A stretch of 64,000 bases of DNA from Tubulanus polymorphus (lineage: Eukaryota > Animalia > Nemertea): contig NC_134032.1 of the NCBI RefSeq assembly GCF_964204645.1, forward strand, positions 4,860,175 to 4,924,174. Direction: 5' to 3'. Positions 5,247 through 38,203 of this stretch are shown here, piece after piece. The notes beneath the pieces are model-generated. The model was not told where the DNA came from. It was given only the letters and a program-made list of their open reading frames with translations, and searched no databases. How positions within the stretch are numbered: position 1 is the first letter of the stretch; every line of letters begins with the position of its first letter. The position numbers were made by a program, and so were the translations under genes.

Positions 5247-5627
5247 AGTAATAGGGATAATAGGCTTTCATACCAAAGGTCGAAGGGTCGAGCTCGTAAA
5301 AAAATGAAAATAATAATTTACAGTTGAATTAGTCGCGCACACTCCTAATTCAACTGTAAATTATTATTATTTTCATTTTTTTACTCACTCGCCCCTTCAA
5401 CCTTTGATACGAAAGCCTATTATCCCTATTACTCTTAAAATATTCACATAAATGAATAACATTTAAATCATTGAACTTCTAAAATCAATTTTAATAAAAA
5501 ATATAGTATTAAAATGGAAGCAAATAAGTACTACTGCCCAACATGTAATATCGATATAGATAAATCCCAAAAAGCAAGACACAATAAAACTATAACACAT
5601 TTAGAGAATAAATTGAAACTAGAATAT
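5247..5627 (+). repeat. Left terminal inverted repeat (381 bp); first 187 nt form a fold-back hairpin
   Basis: Reverse complement of 23880-24260, with no mismatch seen by eye. Confidence 0.95.
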
Positions 5628-5818: not shown

Positions 5819-5845
5819 TTTTAATAAAAATATGTATAATAAATG
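5819..5845 (+). promoter_or_regulatory. Example of second motif class TT(T/C)AATAAAAA-N9-TAAA(A)TG; also at starts 5514/23993, 12972, 19934
   Basis: Identical 9-nt spacing in four unrelated genes. Promoter function is inferred. Confidence 0.6.
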
Positions 5846-9238: not shown

Positions 9239-10327
9239 ATGATGAAAAAAGAACAATATTTAAGAGATTTATATTATAACCCAGAAAGTGAAGTATCATA
9301 TTCTAACGTTTCAGAATTATGGGATAAAATTAAATCCGATAATAGCAATATAAAATATAGTGAATTAAAATCATGGTTACAAAATCAACCCACATATCAA
9401 ATTCATAAAAAGATGGATAAAAAATATTTAACAAGAAAAGTAATGGTTTCATATATTGACCAACAATGGCAAGCTGATTTAATTGACATGAAAAACTTAG
9501 AAGAATATAACAAAGGATATTTTTGGATACTAAATGTTATAGATATATTCAGTAGATACGCATGGAGTATCCCGATTAAAAATAAAACCGGTATAGAAGT
9601 TACAAATTCTTTCAAATTAATATTTAAAGAAGCTATCCCAGATAAGATACAATTTGATGAAGGTAAAGAATTTTATAACAAACATTTTAAAAAACTATTA
9701 TCTGATAACGATGTAGAATATTTTTCAACACATTCAGATAAAAAAGCATCTGTTATAGAAAGATTTAATAAAACATTGAAAACTAGAATGTGGAAATATT
9801 TCACCGCTAATGAAACATATAAATATATCGATGTGTTAGATGATTTAGTGAAAGGTTATAATAATTCTAAACATAGTTCTATAAATATGAAACCTATACA
9901 AGCTAGAAAAGAAGAAAATTCAGAAATAGTTTGGAATAATTTATATGGAGCATTTGTTACACATGATTTCGGTGAACCTAAATTTAAAATAGGACAACAT
10001 GTTAGAATTTCTAAATATCGAAAAACATTTTATAAAGGTTATACCCCTAATTTTACTGAAGAAATATTTAAAATTAAAAAGATAATATTAACTAAACCAT
10101 TTGTTTATAAATTGTTTGATTTAAAAGATGAAGAAATATTAGGTTATTTTTATGAACAAGAATTATCATTAGTACCAAATCCAGATGAAATAGAATACAA
10201 AATAGAAAAGGTATTGAAAACAAAAACTCTTAAAGGAAAAAAGTATTCTTTGGTGAAATATAAAGGATATGATGATAAATTTAATGAATGGATTTTATCT
10301 AGTAAAATTAAAAGAATAAATGAATAA
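9239..10327 (+). CDS. Retroviral-like (rve) DDE integrase with C-terminal chromodomain
   Basis: WQADLIDM, IDIFSRYAW, QFDEGKEF, VIERFNKTLK; chromodomain YKIEKVL..LVKYKGYDDKFNEWI. Confidence 0.95.
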   Translation: MMKKEQYLRDLYYNPESEVSYSNVSELWDKIKSDNSNIKYSELKSWLQNQPTYQIHKKMDKKYLTRKVMVSYIDQQWQADLIDMKNLEEYNKGYFWILNVIDIFSRYAWSIPIKNKTGIEVTNSFKLIFKEAIPDKIQFDEGKEFYNKHFKKLLSDNDVEYFSTHSDKKASVIERFNKTLKTRMWKYFTANETYKYIDVLDDLVKGYNNSKHSSINMKPIQARKEENSEIVWNNLYGAFVTHDFGEPKFKIGQHVRISKYRKTFYKGYTPNFTEEIFKIKKIILTKPFVYKLFDLKDEEILGYFYEQELSLVPNPDEIEYKIEKVLKTKTLKGKKYSLVKYKGYDDKFNEWILSSKIKRINE

Positions 10328-10934
10328 AGATTTATTTATATTTGAACCACATAATATGTTAATAACTGGAGTTACAAACTGCGGTAAAACACACTTCATA
10401 TTAGACTTGTTAGAAACTATTTATAAAAATCATTTTGATAATATAATATTATTCTGTCCTACTTATGAAATGAATGAAACGTATAATAGAGATATAGTTT
10501 TTAAAGATAAAAAGTTTATTATATTAAATTCTAAAACAGTAAAAGAAAATTTAGATAATTGTATAAAAATTACATTAGATATTTATAAAGGATCAAATAC
10601 ATTATTTATTATTGATGATTGCGCAAATTTACATGATTCTAAAATTAGAGAAAGTGAGTTATGTTATTTAGCTTTCTCTGGTAGACATTTTGGGATAACA
10701 ACTTGGGTTTTAAATCAGAAATATAATTCAATTGTGAAAGATTTTAGAGAGAATATAAGATTTCTAGTTTTATTCTACAACAAAGATAGAAAATCTATGC
10801 AACAATCATTGGAAGAAAATCAAATTATACCTACTGAATTACATGATGAATATATGAATAAATTAAAAAATAATAAAGGTTCCAAATTACTTATGAGATT
10901 ACAATTTCCATATGAATATAAATTTATAAAATAA
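10320..10934 (+). CDS. A32/FtsK-HerA-family genome packaging ATPase
   Basis: Walker A GVTNCGKT, Walker B LFIIDD, then SGRHFGITTWVLNQ and FRENIR. Confidence 0.92.
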   Translation: MNKDLFIFEPHNMLITGVTNCGKTHFILDLLETIYKNHFDNIILFCPTYEMNETYNRDIVFKDKKFIILNSKTVKENLDNCIKITLDIYKGSNTLFIIDDCANLHDSKIRESELCYLAFSGRHFGITTWVLNQKYNSIVKDFRENIRFLVLFYNKDRKSMQQSLEENQIIPTELHDEYMNKLKNNKGSKLLMRLQFPYEYKFIK

Positions 10935-11583: not shown

Positions 11584-12972
11584 TTACTTTTCTGATTCTA
11601 ATTCTGAAAACAATTTTCTCCATGCATCTCTTAATACTTGCGATCTTCTTTCACCTAATAGTTTAAAATGATAACTATTACCATTCAAACCCTTAACAAA
11701 GAATTCATAAGTTAAATAAATATATTGGTTTAATTTGTCTTCACTTATATTTTTATATTCATTTTTTGCATCATTTCTTATTTTATTTATAACATCCTGT
11801 GAAAAATCTTCATAACTATAGTATTGAATTATTTCATCAAAGTTATCACTTATATTATCATTAACAGCAACTTTTTTCAATTCTGTTAAAAAATCTATAT
11901 TTTTAAATTTTATGAAATAATGTATACTCCAATAATTATTTGAATCAATTTTTATATATAACCGACGAGTTTTTAGATCTAATAATACTTGTTTTGGATT
12001 ATTTCTTACATAATCGATAAAAATTGATCTATATAATTTCCTATGATCATTATTTTCGATATCAAAAAATGCACTTGGTACTCTATAAAGGTTATTTAAA
12101 TCAGCAGCTTTTATTGTATGTTCAAAAGAATTATCATGTTTAATTCTATCTTTAGGTAATACAACAACATTGCACTTTTCACATATATTTCTTTCTATAT
12201 TACCCAAATGTATCTGTGTTAATTTATGCTTTGAAAAATTACTACGACTTATATATTTATCACATTCTTCACAATATTTATCTTCTTTAACATTATCATT
12301 ATCAATTTCACTATCATTATCCAATTCATTTAAAATCTTATTCTTATTTTTCTTATGCTTGAGTGAATTAAGATGAGTTGCCCAATTCTTATAACTTTTA
12401 TACTGTTTACATACGTCACAATATTTTTCATTTGTCTTTTTTGATTCAATATCATATGTAGAGGGTATATTATAAGATACATATCCTGTTACATCTTCTA
12501 TTTTATATTTAATATCATTCTTATCTTCTATTTTAGTTTCAATATCATCTTCTATTTTATATTCAATATCATTCTTATCTTCTATTTTATATTCAATATC
12601 ATTCTTATCTTCTATTTTATATTCAATATCATTCTTATCTTCTATTTTAGTTTCAATATTCTCTTTTATTTTATATTCAATATCATTCTTATCTTCTATT
12701 TTAGGTTCAATATTATTATCTATTTTTGTTTCAATATTATCTTTTATTTTAGGTTCAATATTATCTTTTATTTTAGGTTCAATATTTTCTTCTATTTTTG
12801 TATCAATATTATTATTACGTTCAATTAAATATTCTTTGTATTGATTTAATTCATTTAATAAAAATGTTCCAATATATTCATTTATTCTTTTATAAGGTAT
12901 TACATAATACAAATCATCATTGATTTCTTTATCAGCTTTGATTCTTTCATATACTTTACCTCCTCCTTCCAT
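11584..12972 (-). CDS. Zinc-finger protein with acidic tandem repeats
   Basis: Three CxxC..H..H fingers (YCDVC, YCEEC, ICEKC); IEDKNDIEYK and IEPKIKDN repeats. Confidence 0.8.
   Translation of the reverse strand: MEGGGKVYERIKADKEINDDLYYVIPYKRINEYIGTFLLNELNQYKEYLIERNNNIDTKIEENIEPKIKDNIEPKIKDNIETKIDNNIEPKIEDKNDIEYKIKENIETKIEDKNDIEYKIEDKNDIEYKIEDKNDIEYKIEDDIETKIEDKNDIKYKIEDVTGYVSYNIPSTYDIESKKTNEKYCDVCKQYKSYKNWATHLNSLKHKKNKNKILNELDNDSEIDNDNVKEDKYCEECDKYISRSNFSKHKLTQIHLGNIERNICEKCNVVVLPKDRIKHDNSFEHTIKAADLNNLYRVPSAFFDIENNDHRKLYRSIFIDYVRNNPKQVLLDLKTRRLYIKIDSNNYWSIHYFIKFKNIDFLTELKKVAVNDNISDNFDEIIQYYSYEDFSQDVINKIRNDAKNEYKNISEDKLNQYIYLTYEFFVKGLNGNSYHFKLLGERRSQVLRDAWRKLFSELESEK
12490..12810 (-). repeat. 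In-frame 24/30-bp coding tandem repeats
   Basis: ATTCTTATCTTCTATTTTATATTCAATATC units and 24-bp variants. Confidence 0.85.
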
Positions 12973-13004
12973 TTATTATATATATTTTTATTAAAGTTAA
13001 AATT

Positions 13005-14252
13005 TTAATACATAACACTATCTAATTGTGAATTTACAATATTTAATTGCGCGTCAGATATAATATAAAGGTGCATTTTAAAATTTTTGATTCCCTTTTT
13101 CTTTGTCATGAATAATTGTATTCCATCTTTTGTATTTTGTAGTTTTTTTCCAGAACCATGTAATGAATTATCTTCAGTTGTTCTAAAATCTAACCATAAT
13201 GCATATTTATTACCGGTATAATAATCAATTTGATTAATGTTACAATTTTCAAATGATTTTACTTTTTCATTCATAAAATGTTTTTTAATTTCTACCCATT
13301 GATCTATCATTCTCATTCCTTGACAAAATATTTTATTCGCTATTCCTTCGATAGTTATTTCTACTTTTGTTATTTCAGGATTATAATAATTGTCAACATT
13401 TATTGCGCCATTAGTATACGTTCCAATGGTAAAAAATATTAATATACCTTTAATAGATCTTCTAGGAAAGTTAATATTCTCATTTATTATTTCATCATTT
13501 GCATTAATAGTTACAGTTTTAAATTTATCAATATAATCATATAATAATGAAAATCCTTGATTGTATTTAGTTTGAATTATACTTGAAATATTTTCATCAG
13601 TTACTGTATCATATTCTAAACATATATTCGATAATTTATAACTCATATCTTTATTAACGCTAGATATTACAATTTCATTTACAGGAGCAAATGTTATCTC
13701 AAATATAATATCTTCTTGAATTGCGTATTTATATAAAGGTGCATTATTATTTATCAATTCAAAGTCTAATGGAATTTTATATTTGCTTCCATATATACTT
13801 TTTATCAATTTATCTACATCATTAGTTAATATTGCGCTATTAGCTTCTGATCTTAATTTATTTTGGTTTTCTGATTGGATTCCTTGAAATATCATATTAT
13901 TTCTATTTTCTTTAGTTAACCATAAATCTTTATAGTGCATAAATAAATTATAATCATCTAATGAGAAAACTGTTTCTGGACCAATCTTTATTGTTAACTT
14001 TTTAATCAAATATCTTCCAACATTATCAACGACATAATTATTATTATTACCGATTACTTTTATATCGGCTGATAAATAAATACTGTTTGGAACATAAAAA
14101 GTATTTTGTGTTAATCTCGGAATTCTAACGTATAAAGTTTCATCGGGATTAATATTTGAAGGGTTATGAGTAATTATATGATGTGATCTTTCTGCTTTAA
14201 TAGCATTAGATATTCTATGATTCTTAGAAGGATTGATATAACTCCCACTCAT
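13005..14252 (-). CDS. Putative major capsid protein (double jelly-roll)
   Basis: 415 aa, beta-rich; motifs NVGRYLIKKLTIKIG, YKIPLDF, NENINFPRRSIKGILIFF, YALWLDFR; highly conserved in copy 2. The fold is inferred, not computed. Confidence 0.78.
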   Translation of the reverse strand: MSGSYINPSKNHRISNAIKAERSHHIITHNPSNINPDETLYVRIPRLTQNTFYVPNSIYLSADIKVIGNNNNYVVDNVGRYLIKKLTIKIGPETVFSLDDYNLFMHYKDLWLTKENRNNMIFQGIQSENQNKLRSEANSAILTNDVDKLIKSIYGSKYKIPLDFELINNNAPLYKYAIQEDIIFEITFAPVNEIVISSVNKDMSYKLSNICLEYDTVTDENISSIIQTKYNQGFSLLYDYIDKFKTVTINANDEIINENINFPRRSIKGILIFFTIGTYTNGAINVDNYYNPEITKVEITIEGIANKIFCQGMRMIDQWVEIKKHFMNEKVKSFENCNINQIDYYTGNKYALWLDFRTTEDNSLHGSGKKLQNTKDGIQLFMTKKKGIKNFKMHLYIISDAQLNIVNSQLDSVMY

Positions 14253-14271
14253 TTATTTAACAAAAAAATTA
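14250..14271 (-). promoter_or_regulatory. Example of late-like motif TAA-T7-N6-TAAATG (MCP gene); also at starts 15990, 17308, 17759, 18201, 18447, 18803 and in copy 2
   Basis: The T-tract begins exactly 13 nt before TAAATG in all seven genes. Promoter function is inferred. Confidence 0.65.
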
Positions 14272-14295
14272 ATTATTAATTTTTGATATCATGGT

Positions 14296-15990
14296 TTACT
14301 TGATATTTTTTGATATCATATTTACTAACCCAAAAATAATAGCACTTACAACTGTAATTAAAAATAAAATAATATGTTCAGCAGCAAAGTTAATAATGTT
14401 TCCTGCAGATTTCAATATAAAACCAACAATTGATGCAATAACTCCTGGTAATGCTGCAGCAGATTTTTTAGATAGTTCCCATAAATATTTTGCTAATTTC
14501 TTTAAACCATCTTTAACTTTATCTTGTATAGAATTATTTCCTGGAGTTTTATCTGGTTTATTGGGAGTAGGAGTAGATTTTAAAGCATTTGATATTGCTA
14601 AACCAATTGTTGTAAATAACATAGTTACAGATGTTAGAATTGAAAGAATTGTTATACCTTCTAATTTAAATAATAATTTTATTCTATCTTTTAATGATAT
14701 TTCAGAATCTGGTTTAATCAACAAATCTTTAAAAATAACTTTTAATTTTTTAATATGATTAAGATCATATGATTTTAATAATATATCTCTTTCTTCTTTT
14801 TGTAATTTTATGTTATATTCTAAATCATCTATTTCTTTTACTAAAGCTAACTTTCTGCTTTCAAAATCATAAATTACTTGATGATTTCTATTTAATTCTA
14901 ATTGTTTTAATTCTTCATCTACATTAACTAATTCTTTTTCTAACAAGGTTATTTTAGAAAATCTCATCTTAATATTAGCAATTTCATCAGCTGATACTTG
15001 TATACCTTTAATTTCTCTACGTATTTGTTCAGGAAATGCTTCTAATTCTTCATCAGTTAAATTAAGAAATCCTTTTTCTAGTAAATATTGCAGTCGATTT
15101 ATTCCAGTTTCAGAACCAGATGTATCTGATATACTATTCATCAGTTCTTCTGAATCTCTTAATCTATCAATTTGTTTTTCTAATTGTAATTTACTTGAAT
15201 AATTATCAATTTGTTGAGTGTCTCTTCTCGATGTTTCGGGTGTTGAAGATCTCAATCTATCTAATCGATTTCTATTCTCTTCCATTTCTTGATCAAAATC
15301 AGTAGGATTTGGATTTGGATTTTTAAATGGATTTTTAAATGGTGAATATTTGTTTATATCAATTTTAGGAATTGGTTCTTCTTCATTTATTCTATCGAGT
15401 GCATTCCATATAATTCTGAGAAATTCTCTACCACCTTTTGAATTTTCAATTGTAGATGTTGCTCGCATTTCAGGTTCAAAAATATTTTCTTGTTCCATTT
15501 TAGATAATTGAATTGTTACAATATTCCTATTTAAATCAAGATTATAATACCATGCATCATTTTTAAATTCTAAATTATTTGTGAAATATGGGTCATCTTT
15601 AAAAATTTGTTCTACAACATCTTCAGTATCAATTTCATCTGTTACAACTGATGGTAATAATTCGTTAACAATTGCATCTGTTACTCTAGATTTCAATAAA
15701 TATAATTCTTCTTTCAATTCAGGATCAGTTGTATTTTCTAATCCATTCATTAAATTTTTTCTTTCTATTCTAGTTGTAATTATACCCCTTTCAGGAGCTT
15801 CTAAATATTTTTTAAATTTTTCACGTAATTCGGGATCAATATCATAATCTTCACCTAAATTAGTATTATATGCTGATTCATTATCATTATCGATATTATC
15901 ACCTGCATCATTATAATCATCATCAATATATCCTTCATTATCATTTCCCATGTCATCCAATGGAATATTTTCTACACCTTCTACATCCAT
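14296..15990 (-). CDS. Acidic/coiled-coil protein with C-terminal multi-segment membrane region
   Basis: EGITILSILTSVTMLFTTIGLAI, AAALPGVIASIVGFIL, IILFLITVVSAIIFGLV. Confidence 0.8.
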   Translation of the reverse strand: MDVEGVENIPLDDMGNDNEGYIDDDYNDAGDNIDNDNESAYNTNLGEDYDIDPELREKFKKYLEAPERGIITTRIERKNLMNGLENTTDPELKEELYLLKSRVTDAIVNELLPSVVTDEIDTEDVVEQIFKDDPYFTNNLEFKNDAWYYNLDLNRNIVTIQLSKMEQENIFEPEMRATSTIENSKGGREFLRIIWNALDRINEEEPIPKIDINKYSPFKNPFKNPNPNPTDFDQEMEENRNRLDRLRSSTPETSRRDTQQIDNYSSKLQLEKQIDRLRDSEELMNSISDTSGSETGINRLQYLLEKGFLNLTDEELEAFPEQIRREIKGIQVSADEIANIKMRFSKITLLEKELVNVDEELKQLELNRNHQVIYDFESRKLALVKEIDDLEYNIKLQKEERDILLKSYDLNHIKKLKVIFKDLLIKPDSEISLKDRIKLLFKLEGITILSILTSVTMLFTTIGLAISNALKSTPTPNKPDKTPGNNSIQDKVKDGLKKLAKYLWELSKKSAAALPGVIASIVGFILKSAGNIINFAAEHIILFLITVVSAIIFGLVNMISKNIK

Positions 15991-16006
15991 TTACATAATA
16001 AAAAAA

Positions 16007-17308
16007 TTAAAATTTAAAATATAATATTCCACCGATTACAATTCCTATACAAGTTATAGCTAATTTAGTATTTTCATGTGATTTATTATCATCATTTAGT
16101 TTAATTATATCATGTTGAATAATATCAGTTTTTATATCTTCTGATGTATTGTAATCTTTTATTTTAGAATCATTATTTAATTTAATATTCTTAGTTTTAG
16201 TTTCAGTTGATTGAATATGTTTTTTATTTTTTTCACCTTCCATTAATTTTGGAGCAGTAATAATCTTTTTATTTATATCATTTAATCCAAATGAATTATT
16301 TATTGTTGCAGTTTTAATTAGATTATTATAACCAATTATGTTTCCCATCTTTAATACTAAATCATTAGAAATAATTAATAGATTAGGGCCTATACAATAA
16401 TTAAGTCTTACATGAGATTTATCTAAATAATTTTGATATCTTATAATGTTTTCTGGAATCGATCTATTTTTATCATTATGTATGGAATCTTCAAATAAAA
16501 CTTTAAACTGTTTCTGCGCATCGAATGAAGTGTTATCATTTCCAATTATTGGGGATCTTGTTTCAACTTGGGCGCCTAAAATACATATCAAATAAATTCT
16601 AATAGATTGATTTATTCTTTGTATACCTGATTTTGTAAAACCTTCACCATTTTCTAAAATGAAATTAACCCAACCATTATTATTATCAATTTTATAATTA
16701 TGATAAGCTCCAATTCTATGCATATAATCAATTCTTTTTATTTCAAACTCTTCACCAACACCTTGCAATTTACCATGCGCTCTAAAATCGGAATTAATAT
16801 TTATATTAAATTCATTACATATTTTATAAAACTTGGATATATTAATATTATTATCCAATTCTTTAAAATATTTAGACCCGGGTAAAGGACATTCTAATTC
16901 ATTTAATATTATTCTGATTTGAAAATATGTGTGAAATCTAAATATTGTGTGAATTAATTTTAAATCAGAATACTTCAAATTTTTATCTAAGTTATTTAAA
17001 TGATCATTCCAACTAATTCCACATCCTGTTGTTGCACAATAAACAGCAAAATTTAATTGGTTCTGCCAATACTTCATATTAGATTTTACTTTATATTTAT
17101 GATATTCATCTCGAGTAAAAGTAACTTCATATGTATTAAATATATTTTCCATTTTAGAAATAAAAAACTGTGATTCATTAACATAAATTTCTAAATTAGT
17201 TAATGAATTTAAAACTATATTTTTATATGTAATATTTTTCTTAAAATCTATTGCCGGAATATTATATTTAATTGATTTATTATATTGGAAAGCTTTTGGA
17301 AACCCCAT
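16007..17308 (-). CDS. Conserved hypothetical protein with C-terminal membrane anchor
   Basis: YWQNQLNFAVYCATTGCGIS, FRFHTYFQIR, ILGAQ; terminal LAITCIGIVIGGILYF; homologue at 32628-33922. Confidence 0.8.
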   Translation of the reverse strand: MGFPKAFQYNKSIKYNIPAIDFKKNITYKNIVLNSLTNLEIYVNESQFFISKMENIFNTYEVTFTRDEYHKYKVKSNMKYWQNQLNFAVYCATTGCGISWNDHLNNLDKNLKYSDLKLIHTIFRFHTYFQIRIILNELECPLPGSKYFKELDNNINISKFYKICNEFNININSDFRAHGKLQGVGEEFEIKRIDYMHRIGAYHNYKIDNNNGWVNFILENGEGFTKSGIQRINQSIRIYLICILGAQVETRSPIIGNDNTSFDAQKQFKVLFEDSIHNDKNRSIPENIIRYQNYLDKSHVRLNYCIGPNLLIISNDLVLKMGNIIGYNNLIKTATINNSFGLNDINKKIITAPKLMEGEKNKKHIQSTETKTKNIKLNNDSKIKDYNTSEDIKTDIIQHDIIKLNDDNKSHENTKLAITCIGIVIGGILYFKF

Positions 17309-17348
17309 TTATATAACTAAAAAATTAATAATTTATTAATTCTTTTAA

Positions 17349-17759
17349 TTATTTATCTTGTTCTTCAACTGTTATATGACCATTTAAACTTATTATATAA
17401 TCTAGTGTGTTCTTTAATTTATTAATTTCTTTTATATTAGTTTTGATTTTTTCTTTATTACTTTTTATATTTAATTTTGAACTTATACCAGTTAAAACAC
17501 TTGAACTTAATCCTAACACACCAATTGATATAGCTAAAGGTGTTAATGGACTGAATATTGCTAGAAATGTTATTACAGAACTAATTGTAACCGAACCACT
17601 TATAATCAAATAATATATAATTTTACTTTTTAAATATTTTTTCTTTTTTATCTTTAAGTCACTTTCGAATTCTAATATTTGTTTTTCTAAATATGTTTTT
17701 AATTTAGTTTTATTTATATCATGAGGAATAATATCAATACTATCAACTTTATCTTCCAT
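17349..17759 (-). CDS. Small two-TM protein (slightly shortened by a TTA>TAA change relative to copy 2)
   Basis: Hydrophobic hairpin IIYYLIISGSVTISSVITFLAIF..LAISIGVLGL; homologue at 32175-32656. Confidence 0.75.
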   Translation of the reverse strand: MEDKVDSIDIIPHDINKTKLKTYLEKQILEFESDLKIKKKKYLKSKIIYYLIISGSVTISSVITFLAIFSPLTPLAISIGVLGLSSSVLTGISSKLNIKSNKEKIKTNIKEINKLKNTLDYIISLNGHITVEEQDK

Positions 17760-17778
17760 TTATTTAGAATAAAAATTA

Positions 17779-18201
17779 CTAATTAGTAAACTTATAAGCA
17801 ACAAATATAACAATAACTGTTCCACCCAAAATCCAAATTATTTCATATTTCTGTTGTTCTTTACTCGGGGTATAATAATCTGATAATTTAGGTTTGTATA
17901 GATGTAATTTTTCTTTATTGGTTACCGCGTTATATAAACTCATTGCATCATCAACTGATTGAAAATCTCTATGTGAAATCTTCTGATCATATAATTCTTT
18001 ATTGATGTAATCCATATAGTTTTGTCTCTTTTCTCTATATTCTTCTGCATCTTTATTATATTTCTCTAACGCTAAATTATGTCTTTTTTGTTCTGTTAAT
18101 GATCCATTTTTATCAATATGTTTAAATAAATAACCACCACCAGTAAATGCTAAAGCGTTAACAATTGCTGATCCTATAATAGTTATAATTGCAGAAGCCA
18201 T
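17779..18201 (-). CDS. Small protein with N- and C-terminal hydrophobic segments
   Basis: MASAIITIIGSAIVNALAFTGGGYLF..EQKRHNLALEKY..IIWILGGTVIVIFVAY; near-identical homologue at 31730-32155. Confidence 0.8.
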   Translation of the reverse strand: MASAIITIIGSAIVNALAFTGGGYLFKHIDKNGSLTEQKRHNLALEKYNKDAEEYREKRQNYMDYINKELYDQKISHRDFQSVDDAMSLYNAVTNKEKLHLYKPKLSDYYTPSKEQQKYEIIWILGGTVIVIFVAYKFTN

Positions 18202-18225
18202 TTATTTAGCAAAAAAATTATGTAT

Positions 18226-18447
18226 TTATATGGGAGGAATATATTTTTGTTTTTCCAAATAATCAATAGTTAAATTAGATAAAGTAACTGCTAATGTTAA
18301 CTTTAAAATATCATTGATATCAAATCTATCAACATTAACACTTCCCATTTTGAATACTTTTTTTAATACCATTGAATAACCAACAGTTCCAACTGATAGT
18401 AATGCGCCATTATATAATCCAGTTATTATCCACTTATTATCACTCAT
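18226..18447 (-). CDS. Small hydrophobic protein (73 aa)
   Basis: Differs by only 2 aa from 31484-31705 despite many synonymous changes. Confidence 0.8.
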   Translation of the reverse strand: MSDNKWIITGLYNGALLSVGTVGYSMVLKKVFKMGSVNVDRFDINDILKLTLAVTLSNLTIDYLEKQKYIPPI

Positions 18448-18803
18448 TTATTTATCAAAAAAATTACTATCTTCAAAATATTTAGTAACTTATTTATGAT
18501 TAATTCAACATTTATTTCATTATTAGTTTCATTTGTATATATTTCAATTATTATTTTTTTAATATCATCAATGATAAAATCTTCATGTAATTCATAAAAT
18601 CTTAAAGATTCTCTAATTAAATTAGTAATCTTTTCTACATTTAAAGTTTCTTTATCTATTGTTGTTTCATACTCAAATGTTGTTTCATTAGAAAATGCAA
18701 TATTTTTGATATGTGTTATTACATCATTAATGTTAAATTTCATTTCTTTCTCACGTTTAAAATCAAATCCAAAACATATACTCGGTCCAACAGTTATATT
18801 CAT
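18444..18803 (-). CDS. Hypothetical protein
   Basis: TAAATG start; homologue at 31128-31487. Confidence 0.75.
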   Translation of the reverse strand: MNITVGPSICFGFDFKREKEMKFNINDVITHIKNIAFSNETTFEYETTIDKETLNVEKITNLIRESLRFYELHEDFIIDDIKKIIIEIYTNETNNEINVELIINKLLNILKIVIFLINK

Positions 18804-18819
18804 TTATATATCAAAAAAA

Positions 18820-19575
18820 TTACTCTTTACATCTTATAACTAATTCATATATCACAGGAAAGTTATTTAAATCAATTAAGTATCCATTATGATTTCTTAT
18901 TTCTAATTTAAAATTATTAAATTTAGGAATGCATGGTTTAAAATCACATTCTGTTAAATTATAATTTATTTGAGTTCCAAATTGTTTAACATTTTTTAGT
19001 GGTAAAATATTTAGTATACTAGAATTACAAATTGTTTCTTTAGTTGCTTCGTAAGTTTTTGTAGGCTCTATTAAATTGCAATAAATATAAAAGTGTGTAA
19101 AAGGTATTATATTTGAGCTGCCTTCTGCGTTTCCAGTAACTGTAAGTGGTTTAATTCCTAACATTTTAGCCAGTGGTTTGTTTACCATAAATTTATGTTG
19201 TTCATTAGATATCTTTATTCTTATTTTATTAGTACTATCAATTTTATTAAATTTAATTTCAAATACAGAACTACCCCCGATTTTCAACCGAGCTCTTCTA
19301 TTAATTTCCTGCGCTAATGATTCTAAATTATATAATCCTGGTTTTAAAAATATATGAAACCATTTATCTTTATTTCTCATATAAATCATAAACCCTCTAT
19401 GTTCAAAAGTTTTATCCGATACATTGTAAAAAGAATTACATAAACTTATATTAACTAATTTTAAATCTACACAATTCTTAAATTCTCTATCTAATTGTAC
19501 TAGTAAATTATGAGATTTATAATTTGTAAGCCTTCTAGAATCAACAAATATTCTGTATTCTTTTAATTCTACCAT
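18820..19575 (-). CDS. Putative minor capsid protein (penton, single jelly-roll)
   Basis: IFVDSR, NISLCNSFYNV, PGLYN, FYIYCNLIE, ILNILPL, KLEIRNHNGYLIDLNN..YELVIR; this motif series is typical of Polinton mCP. Confidence 0.78.
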   Translation of the reverse strand: MVELKEYRIFVDSRRLTNYKSHNLLVQLDREFKNCVDLKLVNISLCNSFYNVSDKTFEHRGFMIYMRNKDKWFHIFLKPGLYNLESLAQEINRRARLKIGGSSVFEIKFNKIDSTNKIRIKISNEQHKFMVNKPLAKMLGIKPLTVTGNAEGSSNIIPFTHFYIYCNLIEPTKTYEATKETICNSSILNILPLKNVKQFGTQINYNLTECDFKPCIPKFNNFKLEIRNHNGYLIDLNNFPVIYELVIRCKE

Positions 19576-19592: not shown

Positions 19593-19934
19593 TTATTCGA
19601 AATCTATTTCATGGTGCCCTTTTTCATTCTTACCTTTATATACGAAATAGAAATCTCCAGAACATAATTCTTCTAAATCTTCACTTGATAATCTATGAAA
19701 TCTATCTGGTAAATAAGTTCTGAATTTATGTGTATTTCCTTTTAATCCTTCATATTCTAAATGAATTATTAATTTATCTCCATATTTGTTAGTAACTGTA
19801 ACAATATTTGTAATTAAATATTTCTTGTGAATTGTTAACTCAGTTAGTTTTTTGAATTTATAATCTACAGATTTTACATTTGTGGTATCTTTAATTCTAT
19901 CTAAGAATTCATTGTGTACTTGTTTACTCTCCAT
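19593..19934 (-). CDS. Hypothetical protein, possible OB-fold ssDNA-binding protein
   Basis: FKKLTEL..KKYLIT..TNKYGDKLIIHLE..RTYLPDRF; adjacent to pPolB. The fold is inferred. Confidence 0.55.
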   Translation of the reverse strand: MESKQVHNEFLDRIKDTTNVKSVDYKFKKLTELTIHKKYLITNIVTVTNKYGDKLIIHLEYEGLKGNTHKFRTYLPDRFHRLSSEDLEELCSGDFYFVYKGKNEKGHHEIDFE

Positions 19935-19962
19935 TTATTATACAAATTTTTATTGAAATTTA

Positions 19963-22900
19963 TTAACACGCTAGAATCCTTTTCATAATCTCATTTTCTT
20001 TTGTTTCTTCTCTTTTGAATTTTATATATTCATCTAAATTGCAACCATAGGCGACTGTGTGGATTCCATCATCTAAAATATATCTTTTATCATCAAATGG
20101 GTTTAGACTTATCTTTTCAATTTCTTCAATATACATTTCATGATCTTCAGATCTTAAACATTTCATCTTATGTTTTCTAACTTCTTCATTAAATATACAA
20201 TTGATGTAATCTTTAAAATGAATATTCTTTTCTACTACACTTTTGGTTATTCCTTTTAACTTTTAAGCTTCATGTTCTTTAGTTTTATATGAATACATTT
20301 TAGATCTAATACCAATGAACTCTATCATTTCTTCACCACCTAATTCATCCTTAAACTTCCCAGGAACTTTTTTATTATCATTGCTAAACAATTCATGATT
20401 TTTTGGATAGTTACTGAAATCAAAATGGTGTTTTAATATTTTTAAGTCTTTTGTTATGTTATCACTTTTTATCTTTAATATATAACTGTCAGTATCTAGA
20501 TATAATATTTCTATATTTTTTTCTCCAAAATGGGGTTGCAATACATTATAATAGAATTCATACATCAATAGCTTTGAAATTTCTAAAACTGCAGCTCCAA
20601 CATAAATAGGTTTATTGAACTTCATAGAAGTTCTTTTTAATTTAACTGCAGCTAAATTTTCATCGAATATTCTGTTACCTTTGAATTTCGGATACGATTG
20701 TAAATGTCTAATTCTTTTACCATTACTAACTAACTCAATATCATTTCTATTTCTTATGTTTTCACATGTTTTTCCATAAAACGCATTATTCATTAACTTG
20801 AAGTAATCCTTCTCAAAATCAGTTTTAGCTTCAGTTCTCTGTGTAGTATTAAAATCTATATATTTTTCTAACCACTTAGATTGATTAAATGAAATATATC
20901 TATGTACTTTTTTAATATCATTCCTTGATTCAAATAGAATTTTAACATTCTATAATGAACTACATAATTATATTTATCTTCTTGAGTTACCATTAACTTT
21001 TCAGTATGAATATGATTATCGGGTTTAATTCTTTTTTGATAATTTGATAATTCTTCATGTTTAACAGTTTTATGTTCGGGACAATATGCTAGATTTCTAG
21101 ATTTGAATTTAATATTTTCAGGGTATTCTAAATCTACAACAAAGAAGTAACCAGTATCTGAATCATCTGCAATATCTAGGATTCTTTTCTTCCAATCAAA
21201 TTTATCAATTTGTAAAACTTCAGTTATTTCAAACATCCCATAAGGTTGTGGTTCCATCATTGCCCAACCATAAAGATTATTTGCATCTATGTATAATAAT
21301 TTATATCCAGGATTATCATTTACATTGAAATATCTATCACCCAATACACCTGAAACACCTCCTCTTATAGATTTTTCAAATAATAGTAATTGATCTATAT
21401 TTGTTAACAAATCCATTTTTATATTTGTAAATTTTAATCCACAATCCCATGTTAATCCTGGTGATGAATAACAATGACAAGGATCAATATTGAAATATTT
21501 TAGGTTTACATCTCTAAACCTTTCGAATATATCGGTTAATAATAATACATCTGATTTTAAATATAAATCTACTAATTGACCATGATTTTTAATTTCGAAA
21601 TGATTCCAAATATTCAATGTTCTATTATAGACTTCATCTTTAACATATTCATTTTTTAATTCATCATAGAATTGTTCTTTCAATAATTCAGTTATTTTAA
21701 AATCATTATGATTTTTATAGAAAGAATATGGAATTGCACCTTTATATCTCATTAATTTAAAATCATCATAATTTGGGTAATATTCTTTTAATATCTTTAA
21801 TTCATCATCAACTAATGATTTTGATAAGTTATCTAATGAACTATTTAAAAATCTATATGAATCTATAAATCTAAGACAACCAAATTGGAATGATATATAA
21901 TTCTCAGATGTTTTAGCTAACATTCTAAATTTATAAGTTGGTATTTTATCTTTTGATTTATTTGAATTTAATATTTCTATTTCATTATTAATTTCTTCTA
22001 TTTTGTGACATAACTGTTTGATAAATAAATGTGCGTCATACCCCGATAAATTGTGAAATATAACTGGTACAAAGTTAATTTTCTTAGCTTGTAAGTTACA
22101 ATTCTCATGTGCAGCGCCTCTAAACTTTCCATTTAAATGATCATGGTCTCTTACTTTTTTATCTTAATAATTAAATACCTTTTCACAATAATAACATTTA
22201 TCTGCAAACTCAAATGCTTCTTTATCTTCTTCTGTCATTATAATTTCTATATTTGTATTCAATAATTTACTAAATCTTATTTCATATTCAATTAATAAGT
22301 CACAAAAATGATTGATAACATTTTCATTTCTATAATGATAATATTCACTTTCAATTAGTTCTGGATAATCAGATTTAATATATAACCCGAAAGCAGCAGC
22401 TGATTGATGAATCTTTTTAATAGTATTTGTTTTTGGTGGTTCTTCTGAATAATCACTTTCATTAGAATTTAATTTCTTTCTTTTATAATATATATCTTTT
22501 CTATCTTTATCTGTTAATTCTTTATTTAATGATTCAAAATCTCCATATATTACAAATGGTACTTTATTTTTGTAATCATATTTTTTGAATTCTAATATTT
22601 TATCTTTTTCATTTGGTAAAACTAATTTACAATAATCATGATTATCACATAGTTGTTTATGATTTAATAATGTACTTTCATTACTAAATTTATGTAAACA
22701 TTTTCTACATAGATATATTTTATTATGGTGATCACTTTCTGTTCTAAAAAATAAATCGATTTGTTTAATCCACATATAATGATTCTCATAATATAGTATA
22801 TCTATAACATCGTTTGAATCATAATCTTTTGATAGATATAAAGGTTCTAATGTATAATGTTTAATATTATTTCCTTTTGTATTTGGTAATTTAATTAAAT

Positions 22901-23993
22901 CAAATACATTTATTTTAAGATTATTATCTCTTTCTATTTTGGGGATGTTTTTAATTCTAACAGGATACTTATCTATCTTATAATTATTTTCAAATTGTTT
23001 ATAATGAGTTAATCTAAAACTATGTGTAATATCTTCTGTTGGATGTAAACAACTTATTATAGCCCATATAAAACATTTATTATCAAAATTTTGTATATTT
23101 ATTACACCATTAGTTTTAAATGGTAGTTTAATATAACTTGTTCCATTTATACTATCATCTTTATAATATGATAAATTATTTTCATCAATTGGTTTTGATT
23201 TAGTTAACTTATTATATTTTGTGTTATAAACATGTAAAGTTATAAATATTATCTCATCAAATATTAAACCAGATCCTTCAAAATATTTCTCTTCTATTTT
23301 AGTTTTTATTTCATTATAACATTTATTTAATTTATCATCTATATGTTGTTTAGATATAATATGTTGTGAATGAGAATTTATATTATATATTGGTTTATCT
23401 TCAGATTTTATAAACTTTACTTTAACTGATATACTAATTTTAGGATATTCAACATCTGTAATTATTTTTATTATTTCTTTCATATTTTCTAAATGTTTTT
23501 TATTTTCTTCTATTGTTTTACCTTTATGAAATTTAAACTCGATAGCTGCTGGACCAATATCACTTTTAAATGCTTCGGTTATCTCTATATCTTTTTTATT
23601 ATCTAATGAATTAATATAATTTCTTACATCTTCCATGTATGGTCTTTTATTGTTTAATTTATTTTTTATTCTTTTAATTGTCTTCTGTTTCTTATCGTTA
23701 TCATTATCAAAATAATCATCACCTAAAATATCATTATTCTTATTTCTAATATGACTTATAGATTTTAAATGTTCTTTATAATATCTTTTATCACTGAATG
23801 ATTGATTACATGTATCACATTTATATGTTTCCTTTTCATTCTTTAATTCTTCTAATTTAGTTTCTAATATATCATCCTTATATTCTAGTTTCAATTTATT
23901 CTCTAAATGTGTTATAGTTTTATTGTGTCTTGCTTTTTGGGATTTATCTATATCGATATTACATGTTGGGCAGTAGTACTTATTTGCTTCCAT
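19963..23993 (-). pseudogene. Protein-primed-type family B DNA polymerase (zinc fingers, OTU-like protease region, EndoVII-like domain, exonuclease, polymerase) with three lesions
   Basis: YGDFES, RDHDHLNGKFRGAAHENCN, FHNLSGYD, YIDANNLYG, KLMNNAFYGKT, YLDTDS. In-frame TAA at 22164-22166 and 20263-20265, and a 1-bp deletion in the T-run at 20908-20913. Confidence 0.93.
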
Positions 23994-24260
23994 TTTAATA
24001 CTATATTTTTTATTAAAATTGATTTTAGAAGTTCAATGATTTAAATGTTATTCATTTATGTGAATATTTTAAGAGTAATAGGGATAATAGGCTTTCGTAT
24101 CAAAGGTTGAAGGGGCGAGTGAGTAAAAAAATGAAAATAATAATAATTTACAGTTGAATTAGGAGTGTGCGCGACTAATTCAACTGTAAATTATTATTTT
24201 CATTTTTTTACGAGCTCGACCCTTCGACCTTTGGTATGAAAGCCTATTATCCCTATTACT
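23880..24260 (-). repeat. Right terminal inverted repeat (381 bp); hairpin at 24074-24260
   Basis: Reverse complement of 5247-5627; includes the pPolB promoter and first 38 codons. Confidence 0.95.
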
Positions 24261-28881: not shown

Positions 28882-29672
28882 ATGAGACTTAATGAACTGA
28901 CGAATTTGTATTATCCAATACCTTTCTCTAATCTAAGCGACCGTTGTAGGAACACCGAGGTGAAATACTCTCAAATGTGCGTCATGTGCTATCAAATCGG
29001 CTAAGCGAGAATGTTTTGGAATAAGAATAGGACATTTCATATCAGATGGTAACGAAGAATTTTGAATGCGTCCCTTACAACGAATTATACCCCTTTCATC
29101 AAGGAACAACTGGAGTTGACCGATTAATGAACAACGTTTCTTCGAACCATTAAGAAGGTAAGTTTTCACGTCATGATACGATACATCTTGCAGCCGTTTA
29201 ATCCACGAACATTCCGCTTCGTCGATTTCAGAAGCATGAAGTTGATGCGTGACGCGTCCATCACCACGACACTTCAGGTTAAATATAAAACGACTGACAA
29301 GTGGTAACTCTCAACAATACAATCAAAGACGAGTAATCATCAATGTTGATCACTTGATCAATAGAACCAGGAACATCTATGATAGGATTCGTATGAATAG
29401 AATCATCATTAATTACATCAGAATGTAACAACGCTGACGTGTCAACAAGAGCAGGACGAAATAAATCGTTGACCAACCAATCTGGACCATGGAGCCACAA
29501 ATCGGACTTCAAATTTTGAACTGAACCACCTCTTGTTAACAAATCAGCCGAGTTGAAAGCTGTAGGACAATAATGCCAGTTTTCAACTGATACGAGAGAC
29601 TTGATCTCTTTTACACGGTTAGAAACAAAAGCAGACAACTTCTTGTTCGAACGAAGCCAGCCAAGTACTATT

Positions 29673-30248
29673 ATGTAGATTTGAATTACTTGTTATAATA
29701 ATCAATTTACAATATTTACAATAATATGTTTTTCTTGTTAATTCATTATATTGTTTTTCTAACTTTTCAACTGTTTCTTTTTTATCTGGTAACGATTTCT
29801 CATATTTTATTTTTTCTAATATATTATTTTTTCTTTCATTGAATTCAGTTTCAAATTTATTAGAAATTTTATCTATATGTACTTTACGAAATTGATGATT
29901 CTCCCAATCTTCTATATTTTCAGGGCTATATTTTATTCGACAAGACTCGCAGAAATGATTTTTTATATTATCCTTATCATAGGATAAGAAAGGTCTTTTC
30001 CAAATAATATCAGGTTCAACTTCAACAGAATTACTATTACTTTCATTACTATCAACATTAAAGGTTGCGCCATTAATTTTACACTTCTCTGAATGTTTTT
30101 TAACATAATTACTTGAGAATAATTTATTACATTTTGGAAAGTTTAGTTTAGGGGGTTTATAATTTTCATCATGTTTTTTCATATGTCGAGCCATATTACT
30201 TTTTCTTAGAAGTTCACCACAAATTTCACATGCTATTTTCTCATCCAT
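29673..30248 (-). pseudogene. Truncated Polinton zinc-finger protein (read-through into BEL B creates the apparent ORF end at 29619)
   Basis: CEICGELLRKSNMARHMKKH, HFCESC, YYCKYC; TAAATG start. Confidence 0.7.
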
Positions 30249-30318
30249 TTATTAAGGAAAAATGTTATTAAAATTAATTTTTAGTGATGAGCGGTAATTT
30301 TTTTATGTTATAAATAAT

Positions 30319-31111
30319 TGTAGAATTAAAAGAATACAGAATATTTGTTGATTCTAGAAAACTTACAAATTATAAATCACATGATTTACTAGTTCAATTA
30401 GATAGAGAATTTAAGAATTGTGTAGATTTAAAATTAGTAAATATAAGTGTATGTAACTCATTTTACAATATATCGGATAAAACTGATGAACATAGAAGCT
30501 TTTTTATTCTTGATAAACTTAGAAATAAAAATTTTCAACTTATGATTACACCAGGATTATATAATTTAGAAACATTAGAGCAAGAAATTAATAGAAAAGC
30601 TCGGATTATGTTAGGTAGTGATTCTAAATTTAATATTAAATTCATAAAAAGTGAGAGCTCTAATAAAATTAAAGTAAAGTTTGATGATGAATATTATAAA
30701 CCTGTTTTATTTATGATAACAAGACATACTTACGTGGTAAAAAAAAACCTTTTGCTAAACTGTTCAACAGGAATTCCTCCAGATAAACATATTGTTGGAA
30801 ACATATACGGTATATCAAATTTAATACCTTTTACGCATTTTTATATTTATTGCAATTTAATTGATCCTACAAAAACATTTGAAGCAACTAAAGATATAAC
30901 TTGTAATTCTAGTATATTAAACATTTTACCATTGAAGAATGTTAAACAATTTGGAACGCAAATAAATTATAATTTAGCTGAATGTGATTTTAAACCTTGT
31001 ATTCCACATTTCAATAATTTTAAATTAGAAATAAGAAATCATAATGGTTATTTAATTGATTTGAATAATTTTCCTGTGATAAATGAATTAGTTATAAGAT
31101 GTAGAGAGTAA
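30319..31111 (+). pseudogene. Minor capsid protein homologue, start codon lost
   Basis: VELKEYRIFVDSRKL from 30320; the C-terminus is near-identical to 18820-19575. Confidence 0.8.
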
Positions 31112-31127
31112 TTTTTTCATTATATAA

Positions 31128-31487
31128 ATGAATATAACTGTTGGACCGAGTATATGTTTTGGGTTTGATTTTAAACGTGAGAAAGAAATGAAATTTAACA
31201 TTAATGATGTAATTACACAAATCAAAAATATTGCATTTTCTAATGAAACAACATTTAAGTATGAAAAAACAATAGATAAAGAAACTTTTAATGTAGAAAA
31301 GATTACTAATTTAATTAGAGAATCTTTAAGATTTTATGAATTACATGAAGATTTTATCATCGATGATATTAAAAAAATAATAATTGAAATATAGACAAAT
31401 GAAACTAGTAATGAAATAAATGTTGAATTAGTCATCACTAAGATAACTAAATATTTTGAAGATAGTATTTTTTTGATTAATAAATGA
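31128..31487 (+). pseudogene. Homologue of 18444-18803 with premature TAG at 31392-31394
   Basis: Direct sequence similarity. Confidence 0.8.
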
Positions 31488-31705
31488 GTGATAATAAGTG
31501 GATAATAACTGGATTATATAATGGAGCATTACTATCAGTTGGAACTGTTGGTTATTCAATGGTATTAAAAAAAGTATTTAAAATGGGAAGTATTAATGTT
31601 GATAGATTTGATATAAATGATATTTTAAAATTAACATTAGCAGTTACTTTATCTAATTTAGCTATTGATTATTTAGAAAAACAAAAATATATTCCTCCCA
31701 TATAA
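31484..31705 (+). CDS. Small hydrophobic protein (homologue of 18226-18447)
   Basis: Intact and near-identical. Confidence 0.78.
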   Translation: MSDNKWIITGLYNGALLSVGTVGYSMVLKKVFKMGSINVDRFDINDILKLTLAVTLSNLAIDYLEKQKYIPPI

Positions 31706-31729
31706 ATACATAATTATTTTACTAAATAA

Positions 31730-32155
31730 ATGGCTTCTTCTGCAGTTATAACTATTATAGGATCGGCAATTGTTAACGCTTTAGCATTTACTGGTGGTGG
31801 ATATTTATTTAAGCATATTGATAAAAATGGTTCATTAACAGAACAAAAAAGACATTACTTAGCATTAGAGAAATACATTAAAGCAGCAGAAGAATATAGA
31901 GAAAAGAGGCAAAACTATATGGATTATATTAACAAGGAATTATATGATCAGAAGATTTCACATAGAGATTTTCAATCAGTTGATGATGCAATGAGTTTAT
32001 ATAACGCGGTAACCAATACAGAAAAATTACATCTATACAAACCTAAATTATCAGATTATTATACCCATAGTAAAGAACAACAGAAATATGAAATAATTTG
32101 GATTTTAGGTGGAACAGTTATTGTTATATTTGTAGCATATACATTTACTAATTAG
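31730..32155 (+). CDS. Small membrane protein (homologue of 17779-18201)
   Basis: Intact and near-identical. Confidence 0.78.
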   Translation: MASSAVITIIGSAIVNALAFTGGGYLFKHIDKNGSLTEQKRHYLALEKYIKAAEEYREKRQNYMDYINKELYDQKISHRDFQSVDDAMSLYNAVTNTEKLHLYKPKLSDYYTHSKEQQKYEIIWILGGTVIVIFVAYTFTN

Positions 32156-32174
32156 TAATTTTTTTTCCAAATAA

Positions 32175-32656
32175 ATGGAAGATAAAGTTGATAATAATGA
32201 TATTATTCCTCATGATATAAATAAAACTAAATTAAAAAAAATATTTAGAAAAACAATTATTAGAATTTGAAAGTGACTTAAAGATAAAAAAGAAAAAATA
32301 TTTAAAAAGTACAAATTATATATTATTTGATTATATGTGGTTCGGTTACAATTAGTTCTGTAATAACATTTCTTGCAATATTCAGTCCATTAACACCTTT
32401 AGCTATATCAATCGGTGTATTAGGATTAAGTTCAAGTGTTTTAACTGGTATAAGTTCAAAATTAAATATAAAAAGTAATAAAGAAAAAATTAAAGCTAAT
32501 ATAAAAGAAATTAATAAATTAAAAAATACACTAGATTATATAATAAGTTTAAATGGTCATATAACAGTTGAAGAACAAGATAAATTATTAAAAGAATTAG
32601 TTAATTATAAATTTTTTTATTATATAAATGGGGTTTCCAAAAGCTTTCCAATATAA
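32175..32656 (+). pseudogene. Two-TM protein homologue with a frameshift in the A-run near 32235
   Basis: MEDKVD start at 32175; homologue of 17349-17759. Confidence 0.75.
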
Positions 32657-33922: not shown

Positions 33923-33938
33923 TTTTTTTATTATATAA

Positions 33939-35402: not shown

Positions 35403-35426
35403 ATAATTAATTTTTTTGTTAAATAA

Positions 35427-36674: not shown

Positions 36675-36704
36675 AAATATTAAGTTAAAATTAAGGATAT
36701 ATAA

Positions 36705-37520: not shown

Positions 37521-38010
37521 CATAATTATGAATATTATCTTTATTGTAAACATCAATTAGAAATATTAATAACATCTGGAAAATGTAAAAATTTTGTCGG
37601 TAAAAATTTAAATTATAATGAATTAGATACAATGAAATCAGATGAAATTATTAGATTATTTGAGATTTATGAAGCCGCGAGAACAGCTAGAATTAATGAC
37701 GCGATATCAGATATAGTAAATTATGTAATTATATACTACCAATTGAAGATGAAAATAGATTATATTCCGATTTAAAAAACGACTATTTATTTATGACTGA
37801 ATTAAATAAATGGATTGGATATTTATCATTTCAATTAGGCGGATTCATGACATTATTATCAACTGGGGTTATAACATTTTCAAATATTGAAAGTAAAAAT
37901 ATTTCTATAATAAATGAGCGAGGTGGAAGAAGTGAAGGAATTAACTGTGATGAAAAAACCGAGATCACAGAAACAAATTGAATGGTCTCGGCAATTAGGA
38001 ATAAAAATAT
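37520..38010 (+). pseudogene. Remnants homologous to ORFs 8266-8871 and 8864-9235
   Basis: MTELNKWIGYLSFQLGGFMTLLSTGVITFSNI; [13 protein letters not shown]. Confidence 0.75.

Positions 38011-38203
<193 letters not shown>

Follow-up and report, generated by a model that had tools for sequence, protein, structure and literature searches.

Start-codon signals resembling poxvirus promoters in a Maverick/Polinton of the ribbon worm Tubulanus polymorphus

The element and its gene starts

The 64,000-nucleotide stretch of Tubulanus polymorphus DNA analysed here (contig NC_134032.1, positions 4,860,175 to 4,924,174; hereafter the window) contains a Maverick/Polinton, copy 1, at 5247-24260 (19,014 bp, 76% AT, ends AG...CT), identified as such by its inverted repeats, target duplication, protein-primed family B DNA polymerase (pPolB), RVE integrase, double jelly-roll capsid and A32-like ATPase. 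The terminal inverted repeats (386 nt) are 99.7% identical, and the 6-bp target duplication CATATT is present on both sides (5241-5246 and 24261-24266). Almost all genes of copy 1 begin with one short motif: TAAATG at 14 of 18 starts and TAAAATG at three, the integrase (TAAAAT-ATG) being the exception, exactly as counted in a preliminary description of this DNA. Two of the three TAAAATG starts (5514 and 23993) are copies of a single sequence that lies in the inverted repeat. At the non-start ATGs of copy 1, TAAATG is found in 51 of 709 cases (Fisher p=1e-12 against the starts).

Seven of these starts, all on the minus strand and here called class A, are preceded by a run of five to seven T's that begins 13 nt before TAAATG in every case; the spacer is 6-7 nt in six of the seven, and T occupies position -10 in all. 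The arrangements T7-N6, T6-N7 and T5-N8 were found at the seven starts to which the preliminary description had assigned them (Table 1). Five T's in this register occur at 7 of the 14 TAAATG starts versus none of the 51 internal TAAATG sequences (p=5e-6). Over 3000 dinucleotide-shuffled sets of these 14 upstream regions the mean was 0.25 and the maximum 4, so that the enrichment suggested earlier was borne out. The pattern TTTTT-N8-TAAATG has 13 matches on the two strands of the window, all of them at gene starts or at the starts of broken homologs. From the T-run to the upstream stop codon the distances in copy 1 are -20, 0, 0, 3, 8, 24 and 27 nt; to TAAATG it is always 13 nt. The value of -20 belongs to the start at 18447, where the motif does lie within upstream coding sequence, as had been claimed. 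Besides the capsid gene, four of the other six class A genes encode hydrophobic segments; a fifth, in the 119-aa gene, was discounted because it overlaps the next putative promoter.

The preliminary description had assigned the signal to virion genes. The capsid, which is the only identified virion protein among class A products, does have the run, but in copy 1 the penton-like gene and the ATPase gene have plain TAAATG, and a polB-N-like start (872) in another copy has the run; the label is therefore not exact.

A second class of starts, class B, had been missed. It consists of T[TC]AATAA, a spacer of 12 or 13 nt and TAAA(A)TG, and is present at five independent starts that have no T-run. All six matches in the window are gene starts, and the six matches in 82 related loci comprise five starts and one internal site. 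AATAA lies at -17 to -13, with A at -10 in four of the five independent window sites; by hydropathy, no class B gene encodes a hydrophobic segment. The motif includes the host poly(A) hexamer AATAAA, which at 19934 and 12972 falls about 10 nt past a stop codon. The left inverted repeat duplicates the polymerase start and first codons at 5514-5765, creating an 83-aa chimeric frame with a class B motif of its own.

Two further copies in the window carry the class A signal. Copy 2, decayed and rearranged, is 89% identical to copy 1 over the capsid module, and the two are therefore not independent. Seven of its starts had been said to keep the register: six have an unbroken T-run there, and at 31730 the run is interrupted (TTATTTT). 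Differences between copies 1 and 2 affect TAA at 0 of 21 positions, the core of the run (-13 to -9) at 1 of 35 and the spacer at 7 of 42. T7-N6-TAAAT also precedes the penton-like frame of copy 2 (30297-30317), with no ATG at that place. The third copy is partial, being the right end of a Polinton at 1-956 with polB-N-like frames on the minus strand; its terminus ...CCAATTACT at 948-956 resembles the end of copy 1, and its polB-N-like start at 872 has T7-N5-TAAATG, with a run that begins at -12.

Start signals in related elements

A capsid alignment was used to fetch relatives of the element: two genome loci and, out of 159 metagenome loci, the best 80. Among the 52 loci with at least three usable starts, the TAAATG fraction is 0.67-1.0 in 13 and 0-0.12 in 39, with none between. 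To avoid circularity, loci were also classed by the capsid start alone and 12 near-duplicate loci were dropped: TAAATG is then found at 53 of 59 non-capsid starts in the 14 loci with a TAAATG capsid start, versus 2 of 194 in the 34 loci whose capsid starts otherwise. Even in the 13 of these 34 loci with G+C content up to 0.44, only 1 of 43 other starts is TAAATG. The use of TAAATG is all-or-none across related elements, a pattern absent from the preliminary description.

The upstream T's are conserved as well. At 72 starts of 18 TAAATG-type loci, T frequencies at -9, -10 and -11 before TAAAT are 0.89, 0.74 and 0.72, versus 0.33-0.37 at 115 internal sites, and TTTT lies within -14 to -6 at 34 of the 72 starts versus 15 of the 115 internal sites. 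The T peak is also present in the eight loci with G+C content of at least 0.34. At -13 the T frequency in relatives is 0.33, and the start of the run is not fixed there; the 13-nt register described as invariant holds for all seven sites of copy 1, but not for the third copy or the relatives, and the strict run start at -13 is special to the window's lineage. A quick capsid tree, which leaves out 16 loci without a 300-aa capsid frame, places all TAAATG-type loci in one clade of 25 rows that also includes Kozak-type rows. The motif is retained across capsids of 32-77% identity and G+C contents of 0.20-0.44.

A at -3 is the usual animal start context, and T at -3 is poor for scanning ribosomes. 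In AT-rich sister elements, 48 of 57 starts have this A, there is no T peak, and only one of the 57 is TAAATG. TAAATG has T at -3, and its reading as the host Kozak context was therefore rejected. The start signal is real, lineage-wide and placed like a promoter.

Some relatives have further peculiarities. In L009, L011, L072 and L079, back-to-back TAAATG starts lie 28-37 nt apart with one common T/A tract, and in L072 and L079 the starts of the ATPase and the 433-aa homolog overlap head to head by 22-28 nt. Two TAAATG-type relatives encode a deoxynucleoside kinase (PF01712, E~1e-31; L005:10343-10981 and L007:2898-3377, both on the minus strand), a usual gene type in large DNA viruses.

Proteins, insertion site and neighbouring sequences

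Table 1. Start motifs, genes and element boundaries in the window.
Feature	Position	Strand	Remarks
Class A, T7-N6-TAAATG	14250..14268	-	major capsid gene start (ATG 14252)
Class A, T7-N6-TAAATG	15988..16006	-	564-aa gene start (ATG 15990)
Class A, T6-N7-TAAATG	17306..17324	-	433-aa gene start (ATG 17308)
Class A, T5-N8-TAAATG	17757..17775	-	136-aa gene start (ATG 17759)
Class A, T7-N6-TAAATG	18199..18217	-	140-aa gene start (ATG 18201)
Class A, T7-N6-TAAATG	18445..18463	-	73-aa gene start (ATG 18447), inside 3' end of upstream frame in copy 1
Class A, T7-N6-TAAATG	18801..18819	-	119-aa gene start (ATG 18803)
Class B, TTAATAA-N12-TAAAATG	23991..24016	-	polymerase start; duplicated at 5491-5516 (+)
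Class B, TCAATAA-N12-TAAATG	19932..19956	-	113-aa gene start
Class B, TTAATAA-N12-TAAATG	12970..12994	-	462-aa gene start
Class B, TTAATAA-N12-TAAATG	5821..5845	+	222-aa gene start
Class B, TTAATAA-N13-TAAATG	30246..30271	-	209-aa gene of copy 2, divergent context
Left terminal inverted repeat	5247..5627	+	versus 23880-24265; contains class B start at 5514
Right terminal inverted repeat	23880..24260	-	contains polymerase start
RVE integrase with chromodomain	9239..10327	+	PF00665, PF00385; start TAAAAT-ATG
A32-like packaging ATPase	10320..10934	+	PF04665, E=1e-12; TAAATG start without T-run
Major capsid protein, 415 aa	13005..14252	-	predicted double jelly-roll, pLDDT 83.8
564-aa conserved protein	14296..15990	-	33 homolog matches in loci; three hydrophobic segments near C-terminus (hydropathy)
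433-aa conserved protein	16007..17308	-	C-terminal hydrophobic helix
Four small genes, 136/140/73/119 aa	17349..18803	-	136- and 140-aa products with two hydrophobic segments each
251-aa penton-like protein (lead only)	18820..19575	-	TAAATG start without T-run in copy 1
pPolB	19963..23993	-	broken into four reading frames; PF03175, E=2e-9 on 351-aa piece
Copy 2, decayed and rearranged	29619..38477 (approximate bounds)	+	89% identity to copy 1 over capsid module
Copy 2 class A motifs	31128, 31484, 31730 (interrupted), 32175, 32628, 33939, 35427	+	gene starts

The capsid model finds its best Foldseek matches in the capsids of iridovirus and PBCV-1 (E~1e-16), the Mavirus capsid matching less well (E 2e-11), all at about 10% identity, and its matches in BFVD are capsids of nucleocytoplasmic large DNA viruses (NCLDV). 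The capsid sequence had no match among solved structures, and searches of viral contigs with it found no relative. A capsid fragment of 54% identity, P0045 with its cluster, is filed under Bartonella sp. assemblies and is likely DNA of an animal carrier. The model of the 433-aa protein (pLDDT 78) had no fold match: the best values were E 0.075 in BFVD and Z 4.9 in the wide VIA search, and Atlas gave none. In Atlas the 251-aa protein matches viral clusters, one of which has the Sputnik minor capsid family PF21507 on 26% of its members. The split of the copy 1 polymerase is due either to decay or to an assembly error. No adenain-like cysteine protease was detected by Pfam among the element proteins, several of which have no assigned family.

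Other features of copy 1 include tandem repeats within the 462-aa gene (12493-12834), encoding units of the type IEDKNDIEYK, and a 594-nt intergenic stretch between the converging ATPase and 462-aa genes (10978-11571), which is an imperfect self-inverted repeat (74%) with internal repeats. A 236-aa accessory gene (6860-7570) has only four homologs, all Tubulanus polymorphus LOC proteins of 61-91% identity.

Copy 1 is inserted in the 3' part of a LINE and is flanked by fragments of LINEs and Pao retrotransposons from an animal genome. A joint that skips copy 1 exactly, 5240/24261, is present in runs X1-X3 of organism A and represents either an empty allele or a different copy of the LINE; the same runs hold thousands of variant contigs of the element, indicating a large and variable family. 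Run X4, presumed to be RNA, has only three short partial contigs on copy 1, which have no bearing on expression. Host repeats at 1003-5086, 24640-29600, 43706-46653 and 38001-38207 comprise reverse transcriptase and endonuclease portions of LINEs, fragments of Pao/BEL retrotransposons and an (AT)n run. At 38213-38231 and 40373-41186 there are short inverted termini (CTCGTTACT / AGTAACGAG) and a decayed fragment rich in AT; the first frame of the fragment, at 40561, is preceded by TTTTAATAA-N11-TAAAAATG, a class-B-like start. A single 928-aa open reading frame (ORF) on the minus strand (48024-50810) contains DUF1280 and a weak PHD finger, and a protein search found no homolog of it.

Interpretation and comparison with known systems

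Class A and class B match the late and intermediate promoters of vaccinia virus in position, as judged from the sequence motifs and from reviews, which supplied the vaccinia positions. In late promoters of vaccinia and mpox viruses TAAAT(G) overlaps the start codon, a T is conserved 10 nt upstream with further T's around it (PMC11980589), and the spacer is 5-7 bp (PMC5294985). These features recur in class A, in agreement with the likeness proposed in the preliminary description. The T peak of the relatives matches the vaccinia late consensus within 1 nt (PMC11980589). Vaccinia intermediate promoters have TAAA, no T at -10, and an A/T-rich stretch 15-19 nt upstream (PMC11980589); class B, although defined post hoc, resembles them in lacking that T and being A-rich further upstream. 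The vaccinia late class is rich in membrane and morphogenesis genes, as here. The late signal TAAATG is also found in salmon gill (fish) poxvirus and an entomopoxvirus (PMC4542343, PMC3061580), while asfarvirus-type late promoters are TATATA (PMC11788076).

RNA polymerase and transcription factor families had no Pfam match in 20 element proteins of the window or 35 proteins of the relatives; the reader of the signals is therefore expected to come from outside the element. The explanation favoured here, with moderate confidence, is that the motifs are post-replicative promoters for the poxvirus-type RNA polymerase of a helper, as Mavirus uses CroV late promoters: virophages carry the late promoter of their helper, and CroV wakes integrated Mavirus (PMC6723459). 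By this analogy the element, although a Polinton, probably works like a virophage. It would be silent in the chromosome until a helper infects the cell, its promoters would be read by the RNA polymerase of the co-infecting poxvirus or poxvirus-like virus, and it would then use its own pPolB for replication and its own capsid for packaging, on the model of Mavirus with CroV. Initiation within AAA is known to produce a 5' poly(A) leader by slippage (PMC6211774); if transcription of the element starts in the AAA of TAAAT, as in vaccinia, the anti-Kozak T at -3 would stay out of the mRNA and slippage would add such a leader, which would explain why T at -3 costs nothing. Of the two classes, the one with the T-run, which precedes the capsid and predicted membrane genes, may fire late; the one with AATAA, which precedes the polymerase gene and others not predicted to encode membrane proteins, may fire at an intermediate stage.

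Several points weigh against a poxvirus-type helper. The promoter reading comes from sequence: neither transcripts, start sites and leaders nor a helper virus were seen. When viral contigs were scanned for class A, there were 120 scattered single matches, 15 of them followed by an ORF of at least 60 aa, with no contig prominent and no helper identified. In the 20 window and 35 relatives' proteins, no poxvirus-specific gene was found beyond the generic A32 ATPase family, and a literature search for poxviruses in nemerteans returned nothing relevant. The reading also requires a cytoplasmic polymerase to reach a nuclear integrated copy, for which it offers no explanation. Class B was defined post hoc, after seeing the genes, and is scarce in relatives; nor is class fixed for each gene, since the penton-like gene has a class B motif in L005, T7-N6-TAAAT in copy 2 and neither of these in copy 1. 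In TAAATG-type relatives AATAAA is enriched within 63 nt of stops (32 of 87 versus 16.8 expected, confounded with the next start), as a host poly(A) model would likewise predict, and internal AATAAA is not depleted in TAAATG-type genes (71 versus 68 expected; 201 versus 195). Free 3' ends of the relatives are followed by T5 in 11 of 36 cases, several of these ends being misclassified, versus 11 of 51 for tandem ones. The AATAAA test does not discriminate, since AT-rich Kozak-type genes have 115 internal occurrences versus 117.5 expected, and a splice-donor test likewise did not separate TAAATG-type from Kozak-type groups.

A helper may not be needed if the signals are core promoters of host RNA polymerase II (Pol II), possibly with an element-encoded factor, the poxvirus likeness being due to ancestry or convergence. 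This would suit an element that integrates in nuclear DNA and forms a large, variable family in the runs of organism A; tissue transcription of other animal Polintons has been reported (PMC8502044), and the conserved 433-, 564- and 462-aa proteins, which lack an explanation, could be regulators. The geometry of the motif argues otherwise. Pol II starts about 25-30 nt downstream of a TATA box, so that TATAAA abutting an ATG cannot serve that ATG, and a TATA-box reading was rejected for this reason. T at -3 would also be a poor context for ribosomes scanning host-type mRNAs, whereas sister elements have a purine, and the coding strands of copy 1 contain 71 internal AATAAA hexamers, though that test did not separate the groups. 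Pol II transcription is considered rather unlikely.

The signals might instead act in translation of polycistronic RNAs, with the in-frame TAA insulating the AUG and the U-run recruiting ribosomes by reinitiation or internal entry. The genes of the capsid module do follow one another closely, head to tail, at distances of -4 to 41 nt, and a ribosome footprint would fit the constant spacing from the AUG. However, the motif is also found in the terminal repeat and at divergent starts, where the strand carries no gene upstream (among starts of relatives, T is at -10 in 13 of 17 divergent ones and in 35 of 48 tandem ones), and TAA is the stop codon of the upstream gene in only 3 of the 48 tandem junctions. 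A splice or trans-splice acceptor was rejected as well: YAG lies within 12 nt of the ATG in 11 of 78 starts, like the control loci (7 of 57). A translational role is accordingly judged improbable.

Similarly small is the probability assigned to the motifs being relics of an ancestor that depended on a poxvirus-type helper, the present copies being inert or spread by host transcription. Copy 1 does have a split polymerase gene and copy 2 has decayed, and the mixture of TAAATG-type and Kozak-type elements within one capsid clade of the quick tree implies that switches happen. Relics would not be expected to show the contrast between nearly unchanged TAA and core run and a diverged spacer in copies 1 and 2, nor retention of the motif over the range of capsid identity and G+C content found in relatives.

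The last alternative, named in the preliminary description as what would overturn the promoter reading, is that the T-runs signal the 3' end of the gene upstream, or are AT-rich filler, and that TAAATG is a host start-codon context; although T7 contains the poxvirus early terminator TTTTTNT (PMC3061580), two runs start directly after an upstream stop and two class B hexamers closely follow stops, it is largely refuted and very improbable, because the register is fixed to TAAATG and not to the stop, neither T5 nor AATAAA follows any of the four free 3' ends of copy 1 within 70 nt, and the AT-matched sisters have A at -3 and almost never TAAATG. In coding strands TTTTTNT itself occurs 20 times versus 49.7 expected, which is within a general avoidance of homopolymers (ratios of 0.33 for T6 and 0.34 for A7; TTTTTVT 0.49 versus 0.73 for its mirror).

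A promoter role under a poxvirus-type helper would help to decide between three views of animal Polintons: autonomous viruses, transposons, or parasites of larger viruses. The all-or-none start signature offers a direct test, since it specifies the nucleotide at which transcription should begin, a poly(A) leader on the mRNAs, two classes of timing and the type of helper to expect. If the reading is right, the virophage lifestyle would extend from protists to animal germlines, and poxvirus-type viruses would be indicated in a phylum, the ribbon worms, for which the literature search found none. More tentatively, and with somewhat less than even confidence, a whole lineage of invertebrate germline Polintons could consist of endogenous poxvirus virophages that carry a two-stage (intermediate, late) copy of the poxvirus promoter cascade, each element being a beacon for an undiscovered poxvirus-type virus of its host. 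If so, the TAAATG-or-Kozak switch would make it possible to tell from the sequence of an animal Polinton whether it depends on a helper or is autonomous. Further literature searches found no paper describing poxvirus-type promoters in a Polinton, subscription journals being mostly outside their coverage.

The system differs from vaccinia in being a 19-kb integrating element without a recognisable RNA polymerase and in having a longer and more uniform run (T5-T7, fixed start). The yeast pGKL cytoplasmic linear plasmids are not known to encode a capsid or an integrase. They are likewise linear elements with pPolB, and their TAAAN initiator gives rise to 5' poly(A) leaders by slippage, but they differ in possessing their own polymerase and capping enzyme and an early-like upstream sequence (PMC6211774).

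Adintoviruses (Starrett et al., PMC8502044) share with the element inverted repeats, a 6-bp target duplication, pPolB, RVE integrase, ATPase, a jelly-roll capsid and residence in an animal genome; that paper does not contain the words promoter or helper. Most capsid relatives found here have ordinary starts with a purine at -3, unlike the window's lineage. The Polinton-like viruses found in the occlusion bodies of entomopoxviruses (Barth et al. 2024, PMC11296320) are likewise Polinton-type elements in animals and have been proposed to be hyperparasites of poxviruses. They encode a cysteine protease, and two of them lack a detected integrase, whereas the element, from a marine worm, has an RVE integrase and no Pfam-detectable protease; the main text of that source does not use promoter, motif, TAAAT, transcription or upstream, and its supplement index lists no promoter table (PMC11296320).

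Further parallels are the pairs Mavirus/CroV and Sputnik/mimivirus. The host of the present Polinton is an animal and not a protist, its start motif matches the promoter of the Poxviridae and not that of the Mimiviridae, and its capsid model matches iridovirus and PBCV-1 capsids better than that of Mavirus. Like Mavirus, this Polinton has pPolB and an RVE integrase, and like these virophages it is a small capsid-encoding element that is endogenous in its host (PMC6723459). In Mavirus and Sputnik, and likewise here, one start motif that matches the late promoter of a large virus stands before nearly all genes.

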